Assembly (NCBI GenBank): GCA_016186325.1
Contig: JACPLW010000005.1
Span: forward strand, 17,191 to 81,190
Direction of reading: 5' to 3'
Origin: Parcubacteria group bacterium
GTDB taxonomy: Bacteria > Patescibacteriota > Minisyncoccia > UBA10092
Length of the DNA: 64,000 nt
A program made the position numbers and the translations under genes. Shown here in pieces: positions 1 through 45,682 of this stretch. A model generated the notes under the pieces. The model saw only the letters and a list, made by a program, of their open reading frames with translations, was not told where the DNA came from and made no database searches. Every line of letters begins with the position of its first letter. Position 1 is the stretch's first letter.

Positions 1-1090
1 TCTGATCAATCAATGTGTTTTCCAAAGCTGAAAGGCGATCTTCAAAAACCAAAAATCCGGCGGTGGTAGTAGCATAAAATGGGAATGCTTCCGCCTTCGC
101 TAAAGCTTCGGCGGACAAGTCGGGGAGCACGTCAAGCGCTAGAGCATCTTCAAAAGTAGTAATTTTTGGAAATCCTTCTTTTGGCTGAATCAGTTTTGAC
201 TTACCGGATTCTAAAGTACCGACGGCCAGTTCTTGAATCGGTTTGGTTTTAAAAAGCGAAAGCATCCAATTGGAAAATTCCGGAATATCTTTAGGAAATC
301 CTTGCAGCATTTCGGTAACTAAAGCCGCTTGCCCTGAGTTTTGTCGAAGGGCCTGATACTTAGAAGTACTTAAACCGTTAAGTAAACTTAAACTCTTAAA
401 CGGCGAAATAATGCCGAAGACGGATGTGAGCGAGAAAATTAAAAAAACCGCAGTAAAAGCCGAAGCCAAAAATAGTTTAAGACTAGACCATGATTTTAAA
501 GATGCGAGAACGCCAAAATATCTGCTGGCTTTCTGAAATTCATAGACATCGTTAGATTTTATATTCTCTTTTACAGTTTCAAGAATTGCCAATTTTTCAT
601 CGGGTTTAAGTTCTCTTGAAGAAATTATGATTTCACGGCCTAGCGCAAAGTCTCTAAATTTCGAAATCTCTAAATCTCCAAATTTTGCTTGCCCTTCGTA
701 GCCCCGCAAAGCGGGACGAAGGAGGGAAATGTCTTCAACGCTCGCTTCAACTTTCTTTAATCTTTCAATGACTTCTTGCTTGTCCGCCGCAACTTTAGCA
801 AAAGTGGATTCAAGAACCAATCTGGTTTTAAGATTTTCAAACTCTGATTTTTCTTCTTCTTTAAGAGTTGCACTATCTGTTGCCTGCGTGAAACGCCCAA
901 CCGATCGTTGGTACTCTAGAAGCCACTCATTAGTTGTTACCCAATTCCGCCCAAGCTTAACTGCCCGAAGTTTCCCTCGGCGAATCAAAACGTTCACATA
1001 ATCCCGTGAAGTACTTAAAATCTTTCCGGCTTCGGAAAGCGGAATATAGTTTAAATTTTTATAATCTGAATTTTTTATTTCATTCTGCAT
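1..1090 (-). CDS. Excisionase-type helix-turn-helix domain protein, partial (C-terminus runs off the window start); paralog of the gene at 31167..31781
   Basis: Manual reverse-strand translation from the ATG at 1090 gives MQNEIKNSDYKNLNYIPLSEAGKILSTSRDYVNVLIRRGKLRAVKLGRNWVTTNEWLLEY. The N-terminal HTH aligns with the 31167..31781 protein. No stop before position 1, so the ORF track does not list it. Confidence 0.45.
   Translation of the reverse strand, partial: MQNEIKNSDYKNLNYIPLSEAGKILSTSRDYVNVLIRRGKLRAVKLGRNWVTTNEWLLEYQRSVGRFTQATDSATLKEEEKSEFENLKTRLVLESTFAKVAADKQEVIERLKKVEASVEDISLLRPALRGYEGQAKFGDLEISKFRDFALGREIIISSRELKPDEKLAILETVKENIKSNDVYEFQKASRYFGVLASLKSWSSLKLFLASAFTAVFLIFSLTSVFGIISPFKSLSLLNGLSTSKYQALRQNSGQAALVTEMLQGFPKDIPEFSNWMLSLFKTKPIQELAVGTLESGKSKLIQPKEGFPKITTFEDALALDVLPDLSAEALAKAEAFPFYATTTAGFLVFEDRLSALENTLIDQ
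694..722. repeat. GC-rich palindromic mini-element, in-frame in the HTH gene
   Basis: ccttcgtagccccgcaaagcgggacgaagg encodes ...LRPALRGYEG... on the minus strand. Confidence 0.5.
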
Positions 1091-1286: not shown

Positions 1287-3305
1287 TTACTCAACTGTTA
1301 CACTTTTTGCCAAATTACGCGGCTTATCCACGTCTATTCTTCTTAAGGTCCCCATATAATACGCGAATAACTGCAATGGAATAACCGCCAGAATCGGCGT
1401 CAGCATTTCTAAAGTTTTTGGTATATAGAGCCAATCATCCGCGATATGTTTAATATTTTTATTTCCTTCGGTTGTAATGGCGATGATTTTCCCACGCCTT
1501 GCTTTTATTTCTTCCATGTTAGAAGCCATCTTATCATATACGCTATCAACCCCGCCCCGCAGCTGCGGGGCGGGGTCAACGGGCGCGATAGCCACAACCG
1601 GGAAGTTTTCATCAATCATGGCAATCGGCCCGTGTTTCATTTCGCCGGCTCCGCATCCTTCGGCGTGAATATATGAAATCTCTTTAAGCTTTAGCGCGCC
1701 TTCTAATGCCGTGGGAAAATTATACTTTCTTCCGATATATAAAAAGTTTTTTGCACTGGAGTATTTTTCAGCAATCAATTTTATCTTATTTTTTTGTTTG
1801 AATATTTCCTTAATCAGCATCGGAAGTTTTTCAATTTCCAGAGTGATCTTTTTACCATCTTCAATCGATAAATTATTCCTTTGTCGGCCTAAGAATACCG
1901 CCAAAAGCGCTAAAATAATTAATTGGGAAGTGAATGCTTTTGTCGAAGCCACTCCTATTTCCGGCCCGGCATGATTATATATGCCCGCATCAGTTTCCCG
2001 CGCTATCGTTGAGCCGATAACGTTGACGATTCCGAGAGCAATTTGGTTATTTTTTAATTTTTTATCATTGATTTTGTTTCGATTTAGATTTTTTGATTCC
2101 GGCGCGGTTTTATCTTGAAAATTTTTCAAAACCGACAAAGTATCGGCTGTTTCCCCCGACTGGGAGATGGCTACCATGGCTAAATTTTGTCCGTCGGCTG
2201 GAGGATTCCTATAACGCAATTCAGAAGCCAGTTCCACTTCGCAAGGAATGCCACTCGCCTCTTCAATCATCAATTTTCCGATAATTCCGGCTAAATAAGC
2301 GGTTCCGCATCCGGTGACTATAATCCTGTTGATTTCTTTTAATTTATTTTTCACGCTTTCTAAACCTCCGAGTTTAACATTCCCATCTTCTTTGACCAAT
2401 CGGCCTCGAAAACTGTTTGAAATTGATTCCGGCTGCTCAAAAATTTCCTTCAACATAAAATGTTCGTAACCGCCTTTTTGTGCATCACTTAATTTCCATT
2501 TAAGTTGCTCCTTTCTTTTTGAAATATCTAAATATTTAAATCTTGAAACTTTCACCTTAGCGTTTTTTTCATCTTGACGATATATCTTATTGTGAGAGGT
2601 AGATAAAAAAGATATCGGATTTACATATGCTGAAATATCTACGATTTTTACGTTATACTTTGTTAAAACCGCAATCTCGCCGTCGTTCATATAAATAACG
2701 TCCTTAGTTCGACCGATAATTGCCGAAGCATCCGATGCTATCAAGTTTTCATCACTCCCAATTCCTATTATAAGAGGACTGGAATTGCGCGCGGTGATTA
2801 TTCTATCGGGCCAATCAGCCGCCATAACCGCCAAGCCATAAGTTCCATGAACCTGTTTGAGCGCCATTGCCACGGCTTGTTTAAAATCAACATATCGTAG
2901 ATTTTCTTCTATAATATGGGCTAAAACTTCAGTGTCGGTTTCAGATTTAAATATATGACCATGCCTAATTAAAACTCCTTTCAGTGATTTATAATTCTCA
3001 ATTATTCCATTGTGACAGACAAATATACGATTGGCGCAATCGGTATGGGGGTGAGCATTTTTCTCACTCGGCTCGCCGTGAGTTGCCCAGCGCGTATGCC
3101 CAATGCCAATATTTCCATTCCAACCTGATGAAATCTTTCTTTCTAATTCTATAATTCTGCCTTTGGCTTTTGCCAAATGAATTTTATCATCGTTAAAAAC
3201 GACAATGCCGGCTGAATCATAACCGCGATATTCAAGACGCTTTAAACCATCAATTAAAATAGGGACGGCTTTTTTATTACCTACATAACCGATAATGCCG
3301 CACAT
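1287..3305 (-). CDS. glmS: Glutamine--fructose-6-phosphate aminotransferase (isomerising)
   Basis: N-terminal MCGIIGY (class II glutamine amidotransferase Cys1) and two SIS domains. It carries two lineage-specific insertions relative to E. coli GlmS: an AT-rich K/N-rich segment and a GC-rich palindrome. Confidence 0.9.
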   Translation of the reverse strand: MCGIIGYVGNKKAVPILIDGLKRLEYRGYDSAGIVVFNDDKIHLAKAKGRIIELERKISSGWNGNIGIGHTRWATHGEPSEKNAHPHTDCANRIFVCHNGIIENYKSLKGVLIRHGHIFKSETDTEVLAHIIEENLRYVDFKQAVAMALKQVHGTYGLAVMAADWPDRIITARNSSPLIIGIGSDENLIASDASAIIGRTKDVIYMNDGEIAVLTKYNVKIVDISAYVNPISFLSTSHNKIYRQDEKNAKVKVSRFKYLDISKRKEQLKWKLSDAQKGGYEHFMLKEIFEQPESISNSFRGRLVKEDGNVKLGGLESVKNKLKEINRIIVTGCGTAYLAGIIGKLMIEEASGIPCEVELASELRYRNPPADGQNLAMVAISQSGETADTLSVLKNFQDKTAPESKNLNRNKINDKKLKNNQIALGIVNVIGSTIARETDAGIYNHAGPEIGVASTKAFTSQLIILALLAVFLGRQRNNLSIEDGKKITLEIEKLPMLIKEIFKQKNKIKLIAEKYSSAKNFLYIGRKYNFPTALEGALKLKEISYIHAEGCGAGEMKHGPIAMIDENFPVVAIAPVDPAPQLRGGVDSVYDKMASNMEEIKARRGKIIAITTEGNKNIKHIADDWLYIPKTLEMLTPILAVIPLQLFAYYMGTLRRIDVDKPRNLAKSVTVE
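1550..1575. repeat. Perfect 26-nt GC palindrome, in-frame in glmS, flanked by a TCAAC direct repeat
   Basis: ccccgccccgcagctgcggggcgggg encodes DPAPQLRGG, an insertion relative to E. coli GlmS (VVAPNNELLEK region). Confidence 0.6.
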
Positions 3306-22420: not shown

Positions 22421-22888
22421 ATGGCAATATTCTCCGAAAACCGAAAGGCTCACTTTGATTACGAAATCCTAGAAATTTTTGAGGCAGGCTTAGTGTTGTC
22501 TGGCGCCGAGGTTAAGTCAATAAAAGGAGGGCGCATGAACTTAGCCGGCTCTTACGTTAACTTCCATAATGGCGAACCCTATCTAATCGGCGCTTCAATC
22601 GCTCCTTATCAGCCAAAGAACCAGCCATCCGACTACGACCCGTCTCGCTCAAGAAAATTGCTTTTGAATAAAAAAGAAGTTGACTATATTTCCGGTAAAA
22701 CAAAACAAAAAAGCTTGACTTTAGTGCCTTTAAAGGTATATAATAAAGGCCGCCGAATTAAACTGGAATTTGGTTTGGTCAGGGGTAAAAAGCAGTATGA
22801 CAAACGCGATGCTATAAGCCGACGAGAAATAGAGAGAGAAATCGACAGAAAAATTAAACAAGAGCATGGGAGTGACGGGCTTCGATAG
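22421..22888 (+). CDS. smpB: SsrA-binding protein
   Basis: Typical SmpB sequence (GAEVKSIKGG, basic C-terminal tail). Confidence 0.9.
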   Translation: MAIFSENRKAHFDYEILEIFEAGLVLSGAEVKSIKGGRMNLAGSYVNFHNGEPYLIGASIAPYQPKNQPSDYDPSRSRKLLLNKKEVDYISGKTKQKSLTLVPLKVYNKGRRIKLEFGLVRGKKQYDKRDAISRREIEREIDRKIKQEHGSDGLR

Positions 22889-23275
22889 AACTTGAAAATT
22901 AAATATGCAGGACGAGGATATCTCGTAACCTTGAAAATCCGTCCCGCAGTTGCGGGATGCGACAATCCCCGAGATCCAGCAAATAACTGGCAAAACAAAT
23001 TTAACTCCTGCTTTAGCTTTTGCTTAAGTAGGTTTTACCCCGCGAAGCTTTAGCGTAGTGGGGCATCGGTCGCCTGACGCCCAGTAGGACGATACCGGTG
23101 TCAACAATTGGGCTCTAACCTGAAAATTCTTCGGTTCGGGTTGAACTAAAGAAGAAATTGGGAACCTTCCATTTTGACTGTTTCAAGGAGGATTTTCAAA
23201 AAATTCAAACAGCCTACGCCTGTAGAAATATTTAATTAAAAATTCTAGATGCGAGTTCAACTCTCGCCACTTCCA
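22868..23275 (+). ncRNA. ssrA: tmRNA (ssrA), one-piece; 5' end overlaps the last 7 codons of smpB; CCA not encoded
   Basis: 5' GGGAGTG-ACGGGC-TTCGATAG resembles the tmRNA 5' acceptor strand plus TTCGA D-analog. 3' end GCGAG-TTCAACT-CTCGC (T-arm, T-loop identical to E. coli tmRNA), then CACTTCC (pairs with GGGAGTG) and discriminator A. Internal tag-like frame ...ggc aaa aca aat tta act cct gct tta gct ttt gct taa gives GKTNLTPALAFA followed by a stop. Confidence 0.7.
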
Positions 23276-23448
23276 TTCGACTCGTCTCTCGCTAACGCTC
23301 GAGACTCGCTCATGGCAAGCCACTCGTTGTAATTAACTTGAGTCGCTCACTATTGAACAAGTCGAATGTCCCGAGCGTAGTCGAGGGACACAATAAAATA
23401 TCAGATAATTATCTGGTATTTTATTTTTATAGATGCTATATAATTTTT

Positions 23449-23715
23449 ATGCATTACGTTTATATGATAAAAAATTCTTCTGGCAAATTGTATGTTGGTG
23501 TAACAGAAGATTTAAATAAAAGACTTTACTACCACAACACTAAACAAGGTGCTAATTTTACTAAATATAAATCTAAATTTGAAATAGTTTTTGAAGAAAA
23601 ATATCCCACTCTTGCAGAAGCACGAAAACGTGAGGCTCAAATTAAGAAATGGCGCAGAGAAAAGAAAAAAATACTAATAAAAAGATTCATTGCCGGATTG
23701 TCTACTAAATTATAA
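23449..23715 (+). CDS. GIY-YIG nuclease superfamily protein (small, stand-alone)
   Basis: MHYVYMIKNSSGKLYVGVTEDLNKRLYYHN matches the GIY-YIG core (YVY...GKLYVG...L..RL..H). The true start is probably this internal Met rather than the ORF-track start at 23338. Confidence 0.6.
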   Translation: MHYVYMIKNSSGKLYVGVTEDLNKRLYYHNTKQGANFTKYKSKFEIVFEEKYPTLAEARKREAQIKKWRREKKKILIKRFIAGLSTKL

Positions 23716-26542: not shown

Positions 26543-28267
26543 TTACTTTAATAATTTTAACATTTCTTTCCACGGCCTCGTGTTAACAATATCCGATGAC
26601 TTGGCCCAGCCGCGGCGCGCTTGAGCGATGCCAAATTCCAAGTAATGGAAACTGTTTTTTGAGTGAGCATCGGTATCAATGGATAGTTTTACTCCGGCCC
26701 CAACCGCTTTGCGAATATATTCGTCTTTCAAATCAAGACGGTGGGGATCAGCGTCAATCTCAAGAACGGTGCCGGTTTCTTTAGCTATTTTAATGATTTC
26801 ATCTATATCAACATCGTAGGGTTCGCGCTTTTGAATTAATCGGCCGGTGGGATGAAATAATATATCGGCATTTTTATTTATCATCGCCTTTATAATTCGT
26901 TTTGTTTGTTCTGCACGGGAAAGATTGAAATGCGAATGAACTGCGATCCCGACGACATCAAGCTTGGCTAAAACCGCATCTTCTATATCAAGCGAGCCAT
27001 CTTTTAATATATTGACTTCAGCACCTTTTAAGATCCTGAATTTTGTCCCGCCGATGCGGGATTGAATTTTATCTATTGCAGCCATTTGTTTTAGTAATTT
27101 TTTTTCGTCGGAGCCGCCGGTCATCGCCAAACTTTTTGTGTGATCGGTAATGGCAATATATTCTAACCCCGCATCAAACGCGGCTTTTGCCATTTCTTCT
27201 ATCGAGTTTTCACCATCAGTCCAATTAGTTTGGACTTGAAGATCCCCTTTTATTTCGTTGTATCCTATAAGTTTCGGAAGTTTATTTTTTAGAGCGACCT
27301 GAATTTCACCGCTATCAGTCCTTATTTCCGGAGGCGGTGTTTGCATTTTCAATGTTTTATAAATTTCTTCTTCGGTTCTTCCGACAATTAACTTTTTTCC
27401 TTTAAAAAGTCCGTACTCATTCAATTTATAACCCATTTTCTCGGCTAAGGCTCTCAAAGTTATATTATGCCGCTTGTCACCGGTAAAATACTGTAAAGTA
27501 GCTCCGAAACTTTTATCGGCCACAACACGAATATCGGCATCCATACCATTTTTTAGCCGCACCATTGTTTTCGTAGACCCAGAAGAATAAACATGGGCGA
27601 TTTCCGGAATTTTCAAGAAAAAATCTGTCACTTCTTGTGGTTTGCTCGAAGTTACTAAAATATCCAAATCACCGACTGTTTCCTGCATTCTTCTGATAGA
27701 GCCGGCGATCGCTACGCGATCTACCGATTTTATTTTTTTCAACCGGTCTTCTATTGTTCTTGCAAGCGGTAAAACATCTCCCAAAAGAAACCGCCCGCTG
27801 GATTTTTTTAAAAACTCAATGCCTTTTAAAATTTTTTGTTCCGTTTTGCCGCCGAAACCCGCCATTTTGGCGATTTTTCCGGCTTTGGCCGCTTTTTCCA
27901 AATCACCGATATTTCTAACTTTAAGTTTCTTATAAAGCCTGAAAATCGCTTTTGGCCCAACGCCTTCAACTCTCGACAATTCGCTTATGTTGACCGGCAA
28001 TGATTTTTTTAACATTTGATAATATTTTAAATGACCGGTTTTAATAAGTTCTTCAATCTTTTCCGCGATAGAAATGCCAACGCCGGGGATATCTTCAACG
28101 GCTTTTAATCCGCCTTTTTTATATATTTCCGCTACTTCCTCTTCAAGATTTTCAATGGAATAACCGGCTTTTTCGTACGCGCGAGGTTTGAAAGGTATCC
28201 TTTTTATTTCTAAATATTCGCCTATTTCATAAATAATTTTCGCTATTTCTTTGTTGCTTAGTTTCAT
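26543..28267 (-). CDS. Family X DNA polymerase with C-terminal PHP domain (PolX)
   Basis: Helix-hairpin-helix N-terminus (IPGVGISIAEKIEE), a pol-beta-like nucleotidyltransferase core (GSIRRMQETVGDLDILV), and C-terminal PHP histidine-rich motifs (ITDHTKS, AVHSHFN). Confidence 0.85.
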   Translation of the reverse strand: MKLSNKEIAKIIYEIGEYLEIKRIPFKPRAYEKAGYSIENLEEEVAEIYKKGGLKAVEDIPGVGISIAEKIEELIKTGHLKYYQMLKKSLPVNISELSRVEGVGPKAIFRLYKKLKVRNIGDLEKAAKAGKIAKMAGFGGKTEQKILKGIEFLKKSSGRFLLGDVLPLARTIEDRLKKIKSVDRVAIAGSIRRMQETVGDLDILVTSSKPQEVTDFFLKIPEIAHVYSSGSTKTMVRLKNGMDADIRVVADKSFGATLQYFTGDKRHNITLRALAEKMGYKLNEYGLFKGKKLIVGRTEEEIYKTLKMQTPPPEIRTDSGEIQVALKNKLPKLIGYNEIKGDLQVQTNWTDGENSIEEMAKAAFDAGLEYIAITDHTKSLAMTGGSDEKKLLKQMAAIDKIQSRIGGTKFRILKGAEVNILKDGSLDIEDAVLAKLDVVGIAVHSHFNLSRAEQTKRIIKAMINKNADILFHPTGRLIQKREPYDVDIDEIIKIAKETGTVLEIDADPHRLDLKDEYIRKAVGAGVKLSIDTDAHSKNSFHYLEFGIAQARRGWAKSSDIVNTRPWKEMLKLLK

Positions 28268-28878: not shown

Positions 28879-28900
28879 GTATTTTATTCTAACACATTAG

Positions 28901-28972
28901 CGTCCCTGCGAGGAATTGAACCTCGATCTCAGCCTTCGGAGGGCTGCGCTCTATCCGTTGAGCTATAGGGAC
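28901..28972 (-). tRNA. tRNA-Arg (anticodon CCG)
   Basis: Reverse complement folds as a cloverleaf: acceptor GTCCCTA/CAGGGAC; D-arm GCTC-AACGGATA-GAGC; anticodon stem CAGCC/GGCTG with loop CTCCGAA; T-arm CGAGG-TTCAATT-CCTCG; discriminator G; no encoded CCA. Confidence 0.8.
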
Positions 28973-28987
28973 TTATAAAGAACGGAT

Positions 28988-30157
28988 TCAAAAAACGTTA
29001 TACCAGATTTCAAGCGCTGCTCCCAAAACCGCAAACAATCCGATGGCATAATAAGTAAAATTTGGTAAGTTAATTTCGTAAGCCGGTTTTATTTCCGACG
29101 TTTTTGATTTTTTATGAATCAATAAAACCGTAACTGCTTGAAAACCAAAAAACACCGCCCCAATAAGACCGATTATAGTTATAAAATTTCTAGCGCCCAA
29201 TAAAAATAAAGATATCGGGATCAAGCCGGTCAGAAGCCAGGCGAGCCATTTATTTAGTTTAAAGTCATACCATAAAGTTTCCTTAAAATATACGCCATGG
29301 CTTAGCGAGGCGCCGGCAATAGCGAGAAGGCCCAAGAGCGATCCAAGAAATAAAATGCTTCCGGAGTTTAGAGCGCGCGCCAAACCAGATATGGCATCAG
29401 CGGAGGTAAGAGAACCGGAAACGCCGACAACGATAAAAATAAAAGCCAAATAAATAATTGGCGGAATCAGCGTTCCATAAAGTATTGCTCGTTTTAATTT
29501 ATTTTTCGTAGTTCCTAAAATGTCTTCCATCTCCGGTATCACGGCGTAGCCCGTAATGGCGAATAATATGATGCCGTAAGGCAATAATAAATTTTTTATA
29601 TTTATCTCTTTAAAATTTTCTGGATTTACGTAACCGGCGCCCAGTAATGAAATTATAACGATTATAAAAATTATAATGGAACTTACGAAAAATTCGGCCC
29701 GACCAAAGATTTTCGGTCTGGCTAAAACCGCGAAAAACCAAAAAAAGAAAAAGGTTAATGAACCCCAGAAAGCGCTTTTGTTAAAAATCAAAGCAAGAAA
29801 TTCGCCGCCCAATATTATATAAACAAGCAACACGCCGGCGCTCCCCAATAAAACGGAAATTTTAACAGCCCACTCCCATCTCGTTCCTAAATACTCTTTA
29901 GCAAATCCAACCAATCTTTTTCTTCCTTTAGTCCTTAATGCAATTTCTCCCAGAATCTCTTGAATTATCAATACCATTAAAACTAGTAAAATTAATTCAA
30001 AAAATCCAATTAAAAATCCTGAATGAAAAAAGGCAAATGGCAAACTAAAAATGCCGGCGCCAATAGTAGTGCCGACAAGAGCAAAAACCGCTAACCAAAA
30101 ATTTTTATCAAGTTTATTAATCATCACAATGTTCACCAAAAAAGATGCACCCATCAT
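28988..30157 (-). CDS. Amino acid permease family membrane transporter
   Basis: About 11 TM segments; an N-terminal GTTIGAGIFSLPFAF motif typical of amino-acid/aromatic amino-acid permeases. Confidence 0.5.
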   Translation of the reverse strand: MMGASFLVNIVMINKLDKNFWLAVFALVGTTIGAGIFSLPFAFFHSGFLIGFFELILLVLMVLIIQEILGEIALRTKGRKRLVGFAKEYLGTRWEWAVKISVLLGSAGVLLVYIILGGEFLALIFNKSAFWGSLTFFFFWFFAVLARPKIFGRAEFFVSSIIIFIIVIISLLGAGYVNPENFKEINIKNLLLPYGIILFAITGYAVIPEMEDILGTTKNKLKRAILYGTLIPPIIYLAFIFIVVGVSGSLTSADAISGLARALNSGSILFLGSLLGLLAIAGASLSHGVYFKETLWYDFKLNKWLAWLLTGLIPISLFLLGARNFITIIGLIGAVFFGFQAVTVLLIHKKSKTSEIKPAYEINLPNFTYYAIGLFAVLGAALEIWYNVF

Positions 30158-30439
30158 AACTTAAAAAAACAACGAAAATCAATTTGGCCGCGACTCTCAC
30201 TGACAATCGGACTGTGAATAAGAAGAATCATAAGCATTAATCACCAAGGTCGTTGTGACCATAAGAAACAACTAAATCATTAAGTCACATCGCGCTACAT
30301 TTGCCTTAATGAGGCAAAATCCTGCGTTATGTGTAAATAAAATAAAAATCTAACCAGGCCTTTATTTTATAAGTTAGAATATTCCACCGGCGAGGCCTTG
30401 ACACGATTTTTTGATTTTAAAGTAAATCCACCACTTGTG

Positions 30440-30930
30440 GATAACTCCAACATGTCGCTTACCGGGAAGGGGCCCCGCTTTGCGGGGCAAAGCAAGAATC
30501 GAAGTCCGACCTTGCATCAGACTTAATAACATCTTCTTAACAATCTTTAAACATTCTGTTAACAGCATATAAACATGGAAATAAATAATAAATAATTCAT
30601 TTTCCTCGCCCCGTATACAACTTGTTGTTGTACGGGGCTCGCGCGCTCGCTCCGCCAGCTCTTCGCTCGCTGTCCGATGAAAGCGTTTTACCCCGCCATG
30701 GCGGGGACCATGCTAAAACGCTTTCATAAGTTTCGGAAAATAATTTATTTATCATTTCTCCACTCAAAAACAAGTGAATTCGGGCTCAGTTATTTTTTGA
30801 GGCAGGATATATTTGTTCTCGAGCGGGGTTATGAGCGCGAAGCGGGCATGGTGTCCCGCGAAGCGGGACGAGCGAGCGCGAATCCCTGAGCGAGCATCCC
30901 GCAACTGCGGGGAGCGAGGAAAGCGAGAGA
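30440..30930. repeat. Non-coding island packed with GC-rich palindromes/hairpins (element nest or structured RNA)
   Basis: Contains ggggccccgctttgcggggcaaagc, ccccgtatacaac...gtacgggg, atgaaagcgtttta-ccccgccatggcgggg-taaaacgctttcat, tcccgcgaagcgggacgagcgagcgcg and atcccgcaactgcgggga. Long-range complements (tttcctcg with cgaggaaa; cgcgctcgctc with gagcgagcgcg). No ORF above 70 aa. Confidence 0.5.
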
Positions 30931-31166
30931 ATAAATATATTCTGACGATAGAAGTACGTGAGGAAAATGATTTATTTGTTATTTCTTTGCTATTTCCAAG
31001 AATGATATAGGCGGGCGAAAAAATATTAAATTCGGCTATAATAAACGTCGCGACATGATAACTTCTATCCGCCCGGCTGGCAGATAAAATTTAGCCATGG
31101 TAGCCGCTTAGATGGCAACACATGGCCTAATGACGGAGTAGAAATGTGGAAAGCAGTCACTTAAAT

Positions 31167-31781
31167 TTAAGCAGCTTCTTTTTCGTTACTATCCAGCAGA
31201 TTAAGAATTTGCTCTCTTTCAGCATTTTCCATTTTTCGTATCGGTAAAATTAAATATGGCGGTTCAAAAGGCAGAAAAAACGTTTTCTCTTGGCGGGTAT
31301 CGGGTTGGAATTTTTCTTTCATTTTAAGAGTCTCATCTTCTTGCAAGCTTGACAGTTCTTTTAAAATCTCTTTCTGTAGCCAGTTTTTCGGCGCCTCTAT
31401 AAAAGAGGCGCTCGATTTTTCTTTGTTAGATAGGCCGGGACTTTTTATTATTTTTGAGGAATCATTGTATTTTTGTAAAAGATTTTCGCTTTTTTGAAAA
31501 GCATTTTCGTGTTTTTGGACATATTTTATTTCTTTTTTCGAAGATAGCGCATCTGATATAAACTGGTTTGAAAGTTTATTTTTAGCCGTAGAATGATTGG
31601 GGTCAGAATATTTTTTAATATATTCAAGAACCCATTCACTGGTTGTAATATAATAACTACCCAATTTCTTACCCTTGAGCTTGTTTTGCCGAATCATTAA
31701 GCCCAAATGGTCGCGAGTATAGCCGTAAAGCTGGGCCGCTGTTTTAAGCGATAAATATTTCACAGAATCATTGGTTTCCAT
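31167..31781 (-). CDS. Excisionase-type HTH domain protein with low-complexity C-terminal region
   Basis: N-terminus LSLKTAAQLYGYTRDHLGLMIRQNKLKGKKLGSYYITTSEWVLEY is paralogous to the partial gene at 1..1090. Confidence 0.45.
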   Translation of the reverse strand: METNDSVKYLSLKTAAQLYGYTRDHLGLMIRQNKLKGKKLGSYYITTSEWVLEYIKKYSDPNHSTAKNKLSNQFISDALSSKKEIKYVQKHENAFQKSENLLQKYNDSSKIIKSPGLSNKEKSSASFIEAPKNWLQKEILKELSSLQEDETLKMKEKFQPDTRQEKTFFLPFEPPYLILPIRKMENAEREQILNLLDSNEKEAA

Positions 31782-31992
31782 AAGATCCTAAATTAATATA
31801 GTTATTTTAAGCAGTTTATACAATTTAGGCAGTTGTGATATCTTAATAAAATGGCTGAAATATCTGAAAAATCTTATCGTAAGAGCGATATGAAATAAGT
31901 CCTTTTTTTATTATACCAAAAAATGAAAGCTCCGTATCGCCGGATCTGTGGACAACTCCAACATTCGATTTGCGAAGTCGGAGCTATTATAT

Positions 31993-44882: not shown

Positions 44883-45682
44883 ACTTGAAAAATCTTCTGC
44901 TTGATCTGATTTTCCCTCGCCATTGCCTTGGTTGTAGAGTTGAACTCACGTCAAAACAGGCCTCGCTTATTTGCGCGGCCTGTTTTGACAAAATCATTTT
45001 AAATTCCGCCCTAAAATGCCACATATGCGGCTTAAGAATCGGCCGAATGGAGGTACACAAAAACTGCCGGAAAAAAACGAATATAAAAACTATATTTTCG
45101 GCCGGCCATTATAGCGATCCGATTTTAAGAGAAGCAATCCATGTTTTTAAATACCGCTCTATAGAATCTCTTAAAGAAATTCTGGCGGAATTAATGGTTA
45201 AATACATTAAAAAAGAGCGTCTTCTAAGCGAGTTCACCGATTCGATTTTGGTGCCGATTCCACTTACTCTAAGACGAAGAGTGATCCGCGGCTTTAACCA
45301 AAGCGAACTTCTGGCTAACGAGCTCTCAAAATTCCTTAACTGTCCGGTTGTGAACATGCTAACGCGAAAAAAATTTACGGCGCCGCAAGCCGACATTTCG
45401 GATTGGCAAAAAAGAAAAGAAAATGTTTCCGGCGCTTTTGCCTTATCCCCCCGCCCAGATTTTTCTGGGCGAGGCTCGCCCACTTTGTGGGCGGCATCTT
45501 ATCCACCCGCCAAAGGCGAGGCTCGCCCCGCTGCTGCGGGGCGGCAAAACTATCGATGTCCGACATCAATAATTTTAGTTGACGATGTTTCAACCTCCGG
45601 CGCCACTTTGGAAGAAGCAGCGTTGATCTTGAAAAAAGCCGGAGTAAAAGAAATTTACGGGTTAGTCGTCGCTAGGGGCTAG
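44879..45682 (+). CDS. comF: Competence protein ComF (phosphoribosyltransferase domain) carrying a ~100-nt GC-rich in-frame insertion
   Basis: N-terminal Cys4 (CLGC...CAAC); C-terminal PRTase motif IILVDDVSTSGAT. About 30 extra GC-encoded residues (SPRPDFSGRGSPTLWAASYPPAKGEARPAAAGRQ) sit between the GAF and ILVDDV motifs. Confidence 0.75.
   Translation: MNLKNLLLDLIFPRHCLGCRVELTSKQASLICAACFDKIILNSALKCHICGLRIGRMEVHKNCRKKTNIKTIFSAGHYSDPILREAIHVFKYRSIESLKEILAELMVKYIKKERLLSEFTDSILVPIPLTLRRRVIRGFNQSELLANELSKFLNCPVVNMLTRKKFTAPQADISDWQKRKENVSGAFALSPRPDFSGRGSPTLWAASYPPAKGEARPAAAGRQNYRCPTSIILVDDVSTSGATLEEAALILKKAGVKEIYGLVVARG
45446..45546. repeat. Composite ~100-nt GC-rich multi-hairpin element in-frame in comF
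   Basis: gcccagatttttctgggc; gggcgaggctcgccc (twice); ccccgctgctgcgggg. About 75% GC against a roughly 35% GC background. Confidence 0.6.

Follow-up and report, generated by a model that had tools for sequence, protein, structure and literature searches.

The stretch of DNA considered here, a 64-kb window of AT-rich sequence (40% G+C) to which all coordinates refer, contains a gap of 1009 nucleotides (nt; 30158-31166) between the start of an amino-acid permease gene (30157) and the stop codon of a gene for a protein with a weakly helix-turn-helix-like (HTH) N-terminus (31167). Relatives of these flanking genes were found in Parcubacteria near Candidatus Azambacteria. A first-pass annotation had described the gap as lacking open reading frames (ORFs) above 70 amino acids, as lying near a tRNA-Arg gene, and as packed with GC-rich hairpins and long-range complementarities. 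These observations were borne out: the biggest ORF within the gap measures 70 amino acids, tRNA-Arg(CCG) was found nearby (Table 1), and every hairpin and complementarity quoted was located at or a few bases from where it had been placed. What had been overlooked is that the gap also harbors a block antisense to the glmS gene, an array of repeats with an 11-bp period, and an inversion. We read the gap as what may be a conserved, locus-specific, and composite non-coding regulatory island with a candidate glmS-antisense small RNA (sRNA), an interpretation drawn from sequence comparison to which we give about equal measures of belief and doubt.

Relatives of the locus (labelled L005, L006, and so on) were gathered by a genome scan with the permease, a metagenome scan with a conserved 24-mer, and look-ups of contigs encoding homologs of the HTH protein, and the island was fetched from 12 distinct lineages. 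In all 12, which belong to the Azambacteria-like Parcubacteria, tiny bacteria of groundwater, a non-coding island follows the HTH gene, and in every one it sits between an HTH_17-like gene and either the permease or a LOG-like gene. It is present down to 46% identity of the HTH protein, in the distant lineage L033. The synteny check suggested by the first-pass annotation thus found the island to be both syntenic and conserved. Two blocks, F1 on the HTH side and E on the permease side, are conserved far above the neighboring proteins (40-85% identical), and between them lies a variable middle whose length is kept at 435-528 nt. The LOG-like gene (TIGR00725-type) lies between island and permease in one clade; no trace of it was found in the window or in L017, L019, L022, and L033.

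Block F1 copies glmS codons ~366-383 in antisense orientation. The two copies of its 21-nt core in the window, at 2169-2189 (+) and 31085-31105 (-), are identical at 20 of 21 positions, with 0 matches expected by chance, and the similarity between F1 and glmS spans 33 nt at 85%. Because glmS lies on the minus strand and its copy of the core reads on the opposite one, an RNA made from the strand of the HTH gene would be complementary to the glmS mRNA. All relatives carry F1, antisense to the direction of the HTH gene throughout; scored against the glmS gene of the window, the similarity reaches 40-48 nt at 83-93% in some and covers 20-34 nt at up to 96% in the others. In the four genomes that have the island and glmS on one contig, F1 and the glmS of the same genome match over 18-26 nt in every case, and the predicted duplexes amount to -33 to -40 kcal/mol, as compared with -15 to -20 kcal/mol for shuffled seeds. 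Complementarity to the target mRNA beyond chance, which is expected of a trans-acting sRNA, is therefore present.

Seed and target were also found to be conserved together across species. The F1 core is near-invariant across the 12 lineages. When five glmS genes were aligned by codon (2 kb), the target AATTTAGCCATGGTAGCC proved to be the 18-mer most conserved at the nucleotide level, with 17 of its 18 positions invariant and 15 in the next non-overlapping one. All five degenerate codons of the target are identical in the five genes, against a background of 24% among equally invariant residues; the corresponding probability is ~8e-4, assuming that codons are independent. The NLAMVA/NLAIVA motif encoded by the target is restricted to this clade, in which alone NLAMVA is fixed. 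An F1 variant, CTATGG, occurs in L017 and L019: in L017 it still forms a U.G pair with the ATG codon of that genome's glmS, and a glmS ATA variant matching CTATGG exists in a clade member, P0129, that is not proven to be the same genome as L019. Read in the glmS sense, F1 has a conserved stop codon (RNPPAGG*NLAMVA), so that it cannot be regarded as coding. A GC stem-loop follows F1 in most lineages, with one compensatory change (L033) and with U.G wobbles that, in the window, L019, and L016, fit only the HTH (minus) strand. Beyond F1, a second hairpin and then GATTTTATTTTA were found in L033, L006, L015, and L017.

Beyond the sequence relations themselves, we infer a regulatory role for F1 along the following lines. 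A short RNA from the HTH strand, either the 3' untranslated region (UTR) of the operon or a small transcript of its own, would carry the core in single-stranded form followed by the GC stem-loop. Pairing of this RNA with the glmS mRNA, which is transcribed 29 kb away, would extend over 18-26 nt at codons ~372-379. Long antisense pairings within coding regions lower or tune synthesis, and such a pairing may lower or tune the synthesis of GlmS and with it the supply of amino-sugar precursors for the cell wall.

F1 could instead be the last recognizable piece of a decayed partial glmS duplication. The homology of up to 48 nt fits this idea, as do two further resemblances between the surroundings of glmS and the island. 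A shared motif, ATCGCAAG followed by a T-run and the hairpin TTGCC..GGCAA, lies at 1250-1287, directly past the glmS stop codon, and at 30286-30335 in the right arm of the island, on the minus strand in both cases; the ATCGCAAG motif is conserved in the islands of relatives too. The gene downstream of glmS, moreover, opens with a paralogous HTH_17-like domain (911-1054, minus strand) that is 41-46% identical to the N-termini of the island-adjacent HTH proteins of L005, L006, and L008; in L017 the gene at this place encodes a protein of 1313 amino acids. However, no other part of GlmS was detectable in the 12 lineages, the orientation of F1 relative to the ATCGCAAG motif is inverted compared with the arrangement at glmS, the remainder of the island consists of unrelated sequence that is conserved, and a neutral remnant would have decayed at distances over which the F1 core has stayed near-invariant. 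A glmS remnant is thus improbable in our view. A translated search with the LOG-like protein of the relatives and with GlmS likewise gave no sign of a pseudogene in the gap: the frameshifted remnant that the first-pass annotation had named as a possible refutation was sought, and the only match was an 18-residue GlmS stretch, at F1, containing the stop codon.

Table 1. Positions of the island, its parts, and associated genes in the window (relatives where named)
Feature	Position	Strand	Remarks
glmS	1287-3305	-	
Proposed F1 target in glmS coding sequence	2169-2201	-	codons for ...GQNLAMVA...; 29 kb from island
tRNA-Arg(CCG)	28900-28972		Rfam threshold reached
Trp/Tyr-type amino-acid permease	28988-30157	-	one flank of the gap
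Promoter-like hexamers, plus strand	30398-30403 and ~30418-30427	+	TTGACA and A/T-rich -10-like stretch; would read into island
Promoter-like hexamers, minus strand	30441-30414	-	TCCACA-16-TAAAAT; would read to permease; called by scan
Box GGAGTTATCCACA	30436-30448	-	contains perfect TTATCCACA; invariant in relatives
Window-specific ~30-nt insertion	30462-30491		mini-hairpin GCCCCGCTTTGCGGGGC at 30472-30488
Hairpin ccccgctttgcgggg	30473-30487		
Hairpin GTCTGA-TGCAAGG-TCGGAC	30504-30522	-	adjoins repeat array
Five direct repeats TGTTWA-N5	30521-30575	-	exact 11-bp period; TGTTTATATGC TGTTAACAGAA TGTTTAAAGAT TGTTAAGAAGA TGTTATTAAGT
Central hairpin cassette	30585-31038		~455 nt
Module A	30581-30760	+	nhmmer E 7e-50; inverted relative to HTH gene direction
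Module A parts	30579-30607, 30735-30759; 30609-30637		end repeats; hairpin; also a GC-rich spacer
Module A long hairpin	30677-30727		encloses mini-hairpin 30691-30706 and loop motif ACCATGCTAAAACGC
Mini-hairpin ccccgccatggcgggg	30691-30706		inside atgaaagcgtttta/taaaacgctttcat, 30677-30690 / 30714-30727, 14/14 complementary
Module B	30785-30953	-	nhmmer E 9e-44; 18-nt inverted ends 30803-30820, 30927-30944
Hairpin gtcccgcgaagcgggac	30853-30869		
Third copy of module A AT-rich end repeat GAGGAAAATGATTTATTTGTTATTTCTTT	30960-30988		
Module C-D 3'-end remnant AAGAATGATATAGGCGGGCGAAAAAATA	30993-31026	+	inverted vs most relatives
Cassette/F1-flank junction	31027-31066		GTCGCGAC, then T-rich GTTTATTATAGCC; plus strand reads GGCTATAAT, TATAAT at 31037-31042
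F1 block	31067-31110	-	core GGCTACCATGGCTAAATTTTA at 31085-31105 (21 nt), then stem-loop ATCTGCC-AGCCG-GGCGGAT at 31067-31085
204-amino-acid protein, weak HTH_17-like N-terminus	31167-31781	-	other flank of the gap; last gene of type IV pilus operon
LOG-like gene in relatives	L005 5316-6023; L006 5301-6005; L008 5449-~6000		

The middle of the island is a cassette of hairpin modules, A, B, and C-D, that were defined by profile searches (nhmmer). The ends of module A (30583-30605 / 30735-30757) are terminal inverted repeats of 23 nt at 87%, and its hairpin stems keep their pairing through compensatory changes while the tips vary. The third copy of its end repeat is inverted with respect to 30579-30607 (29 nt, 90%), a complementarity missed in the first-pass annotation, and direct with respect to 30735-30759 (25 nt, 88%). 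Because the A profile also matches 30863-30986 and the B profile matches module A of L017, A and B are paralogs. Module B, which bears mini-hairpins at 30853-30869 and 30898-30911, was also found in L008, L015, L019, and L006, with a constant orientation to the flanks. The C-D match in the window is confined to 30993-31025 (+), profile positions 125-158: the core of ~150 nt is missing and the last ~30 nt remain. Module C-D carries the invariant TCGCAGAGCGAGAGTGAATGC and GGGCGGGCGAAAAAA. Lineages combine A+B, A+C-D, or B+C-D, and the commonest order is F1 - A - C-D - E with all parts in gene direction, the distant L033 included. As a side observation, the loop motif of module A, ACCATGCTAAAACGC (30707-30721), resembles the F1 core ACCATGGCTAAATTTT, its opposite-strand reading mimics the glmS target minus one base, and module B has ACACCATGCCC as its equivalent.

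Comparison of the window with its closest relative, L017 (85% HTH identity), revealed collinear flanks around an inverted middle (~30585-31038), with the homology switching orientation at ~31038-31048. L013, with which the window is collinear, as it is with L019, has the same inversion and the same junction sequences, and its nearest relatives, L016 (84%) and L005 (80%), are not inverted; each inverted lineage has a closer relative in the other orientation. Module A has the opposite orientation relative to the flanks in L005, L016, L017, L022, and L033, and whereas A and the D end flip, module B stays as it is relative to the flanks. The cassette thus consists of paralogous hairpin modules with AT-rich inverted ends, and in the course of evolution it has undergone repeated inversion and reshuffling.

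A segment that occurs both ways round between constant flanks is what would be expected of an invertible DNA switch, in this case one flipped reversibly by a recombinase encoded elsewhere and altering transcription beside F1 and the permease promoter. The orientations, however, differ between genomes only. Two clades share the same junctions and have nearest relatives (84-85% HTH identity) in the opposite state, and a fixed B next to a flipping A and D remnant recalls multi-site inversion systems; yet no integrase or resolvase domain and no recombinase gene was found in the neighboring genes within ~10 kb, and comparison of the junctions yielded no crossover sites. The junctions lie in A/T-only tracts that lack clean bounding inverted repeats and have direct TTTATTAT copies instead, which are ambiguous in such sequence. 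Contigs assembled from short reads of this strain (L001-L004, 100% identical) end within the island, at 30549 and 30867, and leave 30550-30866 unassembled, which might be taken to favor flipping, but neither break falls on an inversion junction. When contigs spanning the breaks were sought by exact matching of the two biggest ORFs in the gap, no record was returned. Overall, we regard an actively inverting switch as unlikely.

The terminal inverted repeats of the modules and their variable combinations would also suit an accumulation of small, non-autonomous mobile elements without function in an intergenic region that tolerates them, elements of the kind represented by miniature inverted-repeat transposable elements (MITEs), REP sequences, or Rickettsia palindromic elements (RPEs), and the first-pass annotation had proposed a master or nest region for such a family. 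This part of the proposal did not hold. Profile searches of 266 kb (the 64-kb window and ~200 kb from relatives) recovered no copies of A, B, or C-D beyond the syntenic island, so they are not a dispersed element family. All lineages, including the one at 46% HTH identity, have such modules; a cassette of 435-528 nt was present throughout, with no lineage showing an empty site, and the hairpins show compensatory change. Dispersed copies, the behavior expected of MITE- or REP-like elements, were found for the GC mini-hairpins of 15-30 nt and not for the modules. Recent insertions of these mini-hairpins here, in glmS, in the transfer-messenger RNA (tmRNA) gene, and in other coding sequences do speak for mobile elements, but a nest without function seems quite unlikely as an account of the island.

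The mini-hairpins, CCCGC-N3-6-GCGGG, are scattered across the window, and the claim that the motifs of the gap recur inside coding sequences was supported for them. The one in module B (30894-30911) is identical at 18/18 positions to the copy CCCCGCAGTTGCGGGATG at 22942-22957 in the tmRNA gene (22868-23278), where it falls within a 31-nt stretch handled as an insertion by the Rfam tmRNA model. In glmS, the 22-nt palindrome at 1552-1573 corresponds to a 30-nt in-frame insertion of 10 residues (VDPAPQLRGG) that is absent from seven homologs, and an almost identical palindrome flanks F1 in L017. Another mini-hairpin belongs to the ~30-nt insertion at 30462-30491, which is a gap in three aligned relatives and absent in L017 as well. 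The small GC hairpins are recent insertions. Five of the 66 GC-rich perfect hairpins of the window fall inside the 720 nt described in the first-pass annotation, where 0.74 are expected (Poisson p ~0.001), and the density in the gap is ~7x that of the whole window. One of the hairpins quoted in the first-pass annotation, cccgcaactgcggg at 30898-30911, is present, with an outer t/a pair that differs slightly from the one given. Palindromes of the CCCGC-loop-GCGGG type also lie inside coding sequences at 703-715, 27046-27061, and 45524-45543. An ORF with a GIY-YIG nuclease domain (23338-23715, plus strand) directly follows the tmRNA gene, and L019 has a GIY-YIG ORF near the permease too.

A single folded RNA of ~320 nt, as proposed in the first-pass annotation for about 30600-30925, is contradicted by the relatives. 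The segment 30590-30930 does fold with very low energy (-157.5 kcal/mol, z -7.65), the proposed long-range helices appear in the minimum-energy fold, and 0/100 shuffles were as good. But the minus strand folds equally well (-153 kcal/mol, z -8.49, again 0/100), and near-equal scores on both strands indicate inverted repeats at the DNA level rather than a strand-specific RNA signal. The two helices, 30601-30612/30911-30922 (12 nt, 92%) and 30642-30660/30862-30880 (19 nt, 84%), pair the motifs TTTCCTCGC and CGCGCTCGCTC, which are common to the paralogous modules A and B and become complementary because A and B stand head to head, in this lineage only. These motifs are arranged as direct repeats in L008 and L015, and one pairing partner is absent from L005, L016, L013, L017, L022, and L033, so the structure is not conserved. 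With no Rfam match either, we judge a 320-nt RNA to be very improbable. The head-to-head arrangement of A and B, together with the recent mini-hairpin insertions, explains the hairpins and long-range complementarity that had been noticed.

Comparison with relatives, which spoke against the 320-nt fold, did reveal compensatory changes in local hairpins, and these argue that the local hairpins have been selected. In an alignment of eight sequences, 91.6% of the cells of the C-D hairpins are paired, as compared with 30-47% in slid controls, and 10 cells changed on both sides, a number reached by 1/500 shuffles. The forward strand of C-D also folds better than the reverse (-43.6 vs -33.6 kcal/mol) because of its many G.U pairs. 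It is tentatively possible, then, that undescribed structured non-coding RNAs, one or several, are encoded by the cassette (A and C-D, perhaps with B) and have a promoter of their own, the inversion being near-neutral or swapping an outside promoter. Compensatory changes with variable tips in the hairpins h1, h3, and HP1 and in the long hairpin of module A, the invariant unpaired stretch TCGCAGAGCGAGAGTGAATGC, the conserved cassette length, and a conserved outside TTGACA that faces the cassette would all be in keeping with this possibility. On the other hand, the distinct sequences number only eight, palindromic DNA can stay symmetric without any RNA function, the C-D core is lost in the window, and the strand preference of A and B is at odds with that of C-D. 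Assigning a strand to A and B by folding energy was given up for this conflict; small wobble-containing stems in module A of L016 and L033 favor the forward strand. In sum, conservation of the cassette hairpins is suggestive, if thinly so, of RNA structure, and the modules may act as RNA.

Comparison with known RNA families gave nothing for the gap. Scans with Rfam 15 at gathering and permissive thresholds, covering RNase P, 6S, SRP, the glmS ribozyme, GlmY/GlmZ, group I/II introns, ROOL/GOLLD, and T-box, reached threshold in the window only at tmRNA and tRNA-Arg; the best E-values within the gap were 2.4-8.7, far under gathering scores. Intact islands from eight relatives yielded no Rfam match. 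Scans of viral contigs with three conserved motifs found no related match (a lone F1-pattern match, L032, was unrelated), and a literature search for structured RNAs or invertible elements in the Candidate Phyla Radiation (CPR) returned nothing relevant.

On the permease side, block E combines several features of a putative control region. Its five TGTTWA repeats are nearly invariant in relatives, and the pattern TGTTWA-N5-TGTTWA-N5-TGTT has three overlapping exact matches in 64 kb, all at this array. The repeat block is 92% identical to that of L005, whose proteins are 40-65% identical. The adjoining hairpin at 30504-30522 is shared by most relatives but missing from L016 and L033, and its strand wobbles are mixed, pointing to the minus strand in the window, L019, and L005 and to the plus strand in L017. 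The box GGAGTTATCCACA has two matches in the window against 0.02 expected. Alignment with relatives showed TTGACA and the TAAAAT/TAAAT region to be conserved; the promoter-like hexamers are consensus matches only. From these features we propose that the repeats, lying on one face of the helix, the box, and the promoter-like hexamers would form a protein-bound control region of the downstream gene, which is the permease here and the LOG-like gene in some relatives. Head-to-tail hexamers with an 11-bp period recall operators of the OmpR/PhoB/WalR type and parC iterons. The WalR consensus is TGTWAH-N5-TGTWAH, the PhoP box is (T/G)GTTTA-N5-(T/G)GTTTA, and parC of plasmid R1 has 11-bp iterons; block E differs from the operators in having five repeats rather than two. 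A 64-amino-acid ORF that overlaps the block (30374-30568, minus strand) was considered as a small protein; because it has no third-position bias (judged by eye) and the frame of its C-terminal part is not conserved, it is not regarded as a gene, and no ribosome-binding site was found for it.

Within the box, TTATCCACA is perfect and invariant, and we take it to be the DnaA-box consensus. Beside AT-rich repeats, it raises the question of a replication origin or another DnaA-controlled site, which we consider extremely improbable: an origin is excluded by a GC skew that is negative throughout the 64 kb and does not change sign at the island, and by the co-orientation of the genes on either side. 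Nor is the motif peculiar to the gap, which has one perfect and one 8/9 copy, the latter at 30213 (-), 56 nt upstream of the permease start; perfect copies lie in three other intergenic regions (42515, 47026, and 50364, plus strand). Allowing one mismatch, TTATCCACA has 26 sites against 13.9 expected, and it may serve this organism more generally as a promoter or regulator motif. A second copy of the box, GGAGTTGTCCACA, lies at 31947-31959 (-), ~170 nt upstream of the HTH gene, in a 25-nt similarity to 30436-30460; an exact-match search found this second copy in this strain only. As for the HTH protein itself, its predicted structure was too poor for a fold search (mean confidence score, pLDDT, 54.5), a profile search found no relative in the PDB, and HTH_17 matches were sub-threshold throughout, in 33/44 homologs.

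Several points weigh against the interpretation of the gap as a composite regulatory island with an antisense sRNA. In three relatives, scanning by consensus for intrinsic terminators returned none after F1, the U-tract after F1 in the window itself is weak, and a promoter scan around F1 gave no convincing candidate. The comparison of targets covers only five glmS DNA sequences, and the link between P0129 and L019 is not proven within one genome. Gene conversion between homologous DNA, rather than RNA pairing, could maintain the conservation of F1 and its target. The window is without the C-D core, the part best conserved elsewhere, so that part of the island may be decaying here. The folding asymmetry of A and B, probably driven by base composition, favors the strand opposite to that of C-D, so a single common transcript is not supported. 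Finally, binding of a protein to the TGTTWA array is a prediction. A more ambitious version of the same interpretation would join the antisense glmS seed and the orientation-flipping structured-RNA cassette into a clade-specific riboregulatory locus with inversion-controlled sRNA regulation of cell-wall precursors. Inversion would then change which flanking promoter reads the cassette and would decide whether the glmS-target-like reading UUUAGCAUGGU of the module A loop shares the strand of the seed. We hold this version to be improbable.

The island has likenesses to several known systems. In Enterobacteria, glmS is controlled by the small RNAs GlmY and GlmZ, of which GlmZ pairs through a short stretch with the glmS 5' leader, depends on Hfq and RapZ, and activates translation (PMC2267818). 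The likeness is that the island, too, would supply a trans-encoded sRNA that base-pairs with glmS mRNA to tune amino-sugar synthesis. The complementarity of the island is longer (18-26 nt, up to 48 nt imperfect), falls within the glmS coding sequence, and goes back to a piece of the gene that was copied; neither sequence nor structural similarity to GlmY/GlmZ was found, and there was no Rfam match. The glmS ribozyme (RF00234) would be comparable as RNA-level control of the same gene, but it is a cis element in the glmS 5' UTR that senses glucosamine-6-phosphate (GlcN6P), whereas the island is 29 kb from glmS, and no ribozyme match was found in the window or relatives. A third class is that of antisense sRNAs derived from 3' UTRs or gene fragments, in which, as in F1, the seed sits just upstream of an operon-end stem-loop and is more conserved than its surroundings; the F1 seed is unusually long for this class and tied to no known chaperone.

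The cassette, for its part, resembles invertible switches such as fimS, Hin/Gin, shufflons, and gut 'invertons' in being a short non-coding segment found in both orientations between fixed flanks, in adjoining an operon for a surface structure (type IV pilus), and in having one sub-module that flips independently. It differs from them in lacking resolved flanking inverted repeats or a nearby recombinase, and in that its orientations vary between genomes only. With REP/BIME, ERIC, Correia, BOX, and Rickettsia palindromic elements the island shares short hairpin units, inverted ends, and modularity, and the mini-hairpins resemble the Rickettsia elements in having entered coding sequences in frame as well as an RNA gene. 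In contrast to these families, the mini-hairpins are much shorter (15-30 nt), and A, B, and C-D are conserved and confined to a single locus.

Bacteria of the CPR (Patescibacteria) cannot be grown alone, and to our knowledge almost nothing is known about their gene regulation, especially regulation by RNA. GlmS catalyzes the committed step toward amino-sugar and cell-wall precursors and is controlled at the RNA level elsewhere by the glmS ribozyme and by GlmY/GlmZ. The orientation-polymorphic cassette and the in-frame mini-hairpins, one of them in tmRNA, show small palindromes remodelling a very small genome. If the reading of F1 as an antisense sRNA is right, the island would be a third independent RNA solution for glmS and thus a testable case of convergent riboregulation, in which a copied gene fragment serves as a long antisense seed conserved with its target, and it would offer a rare handle on regulation in these organisms.

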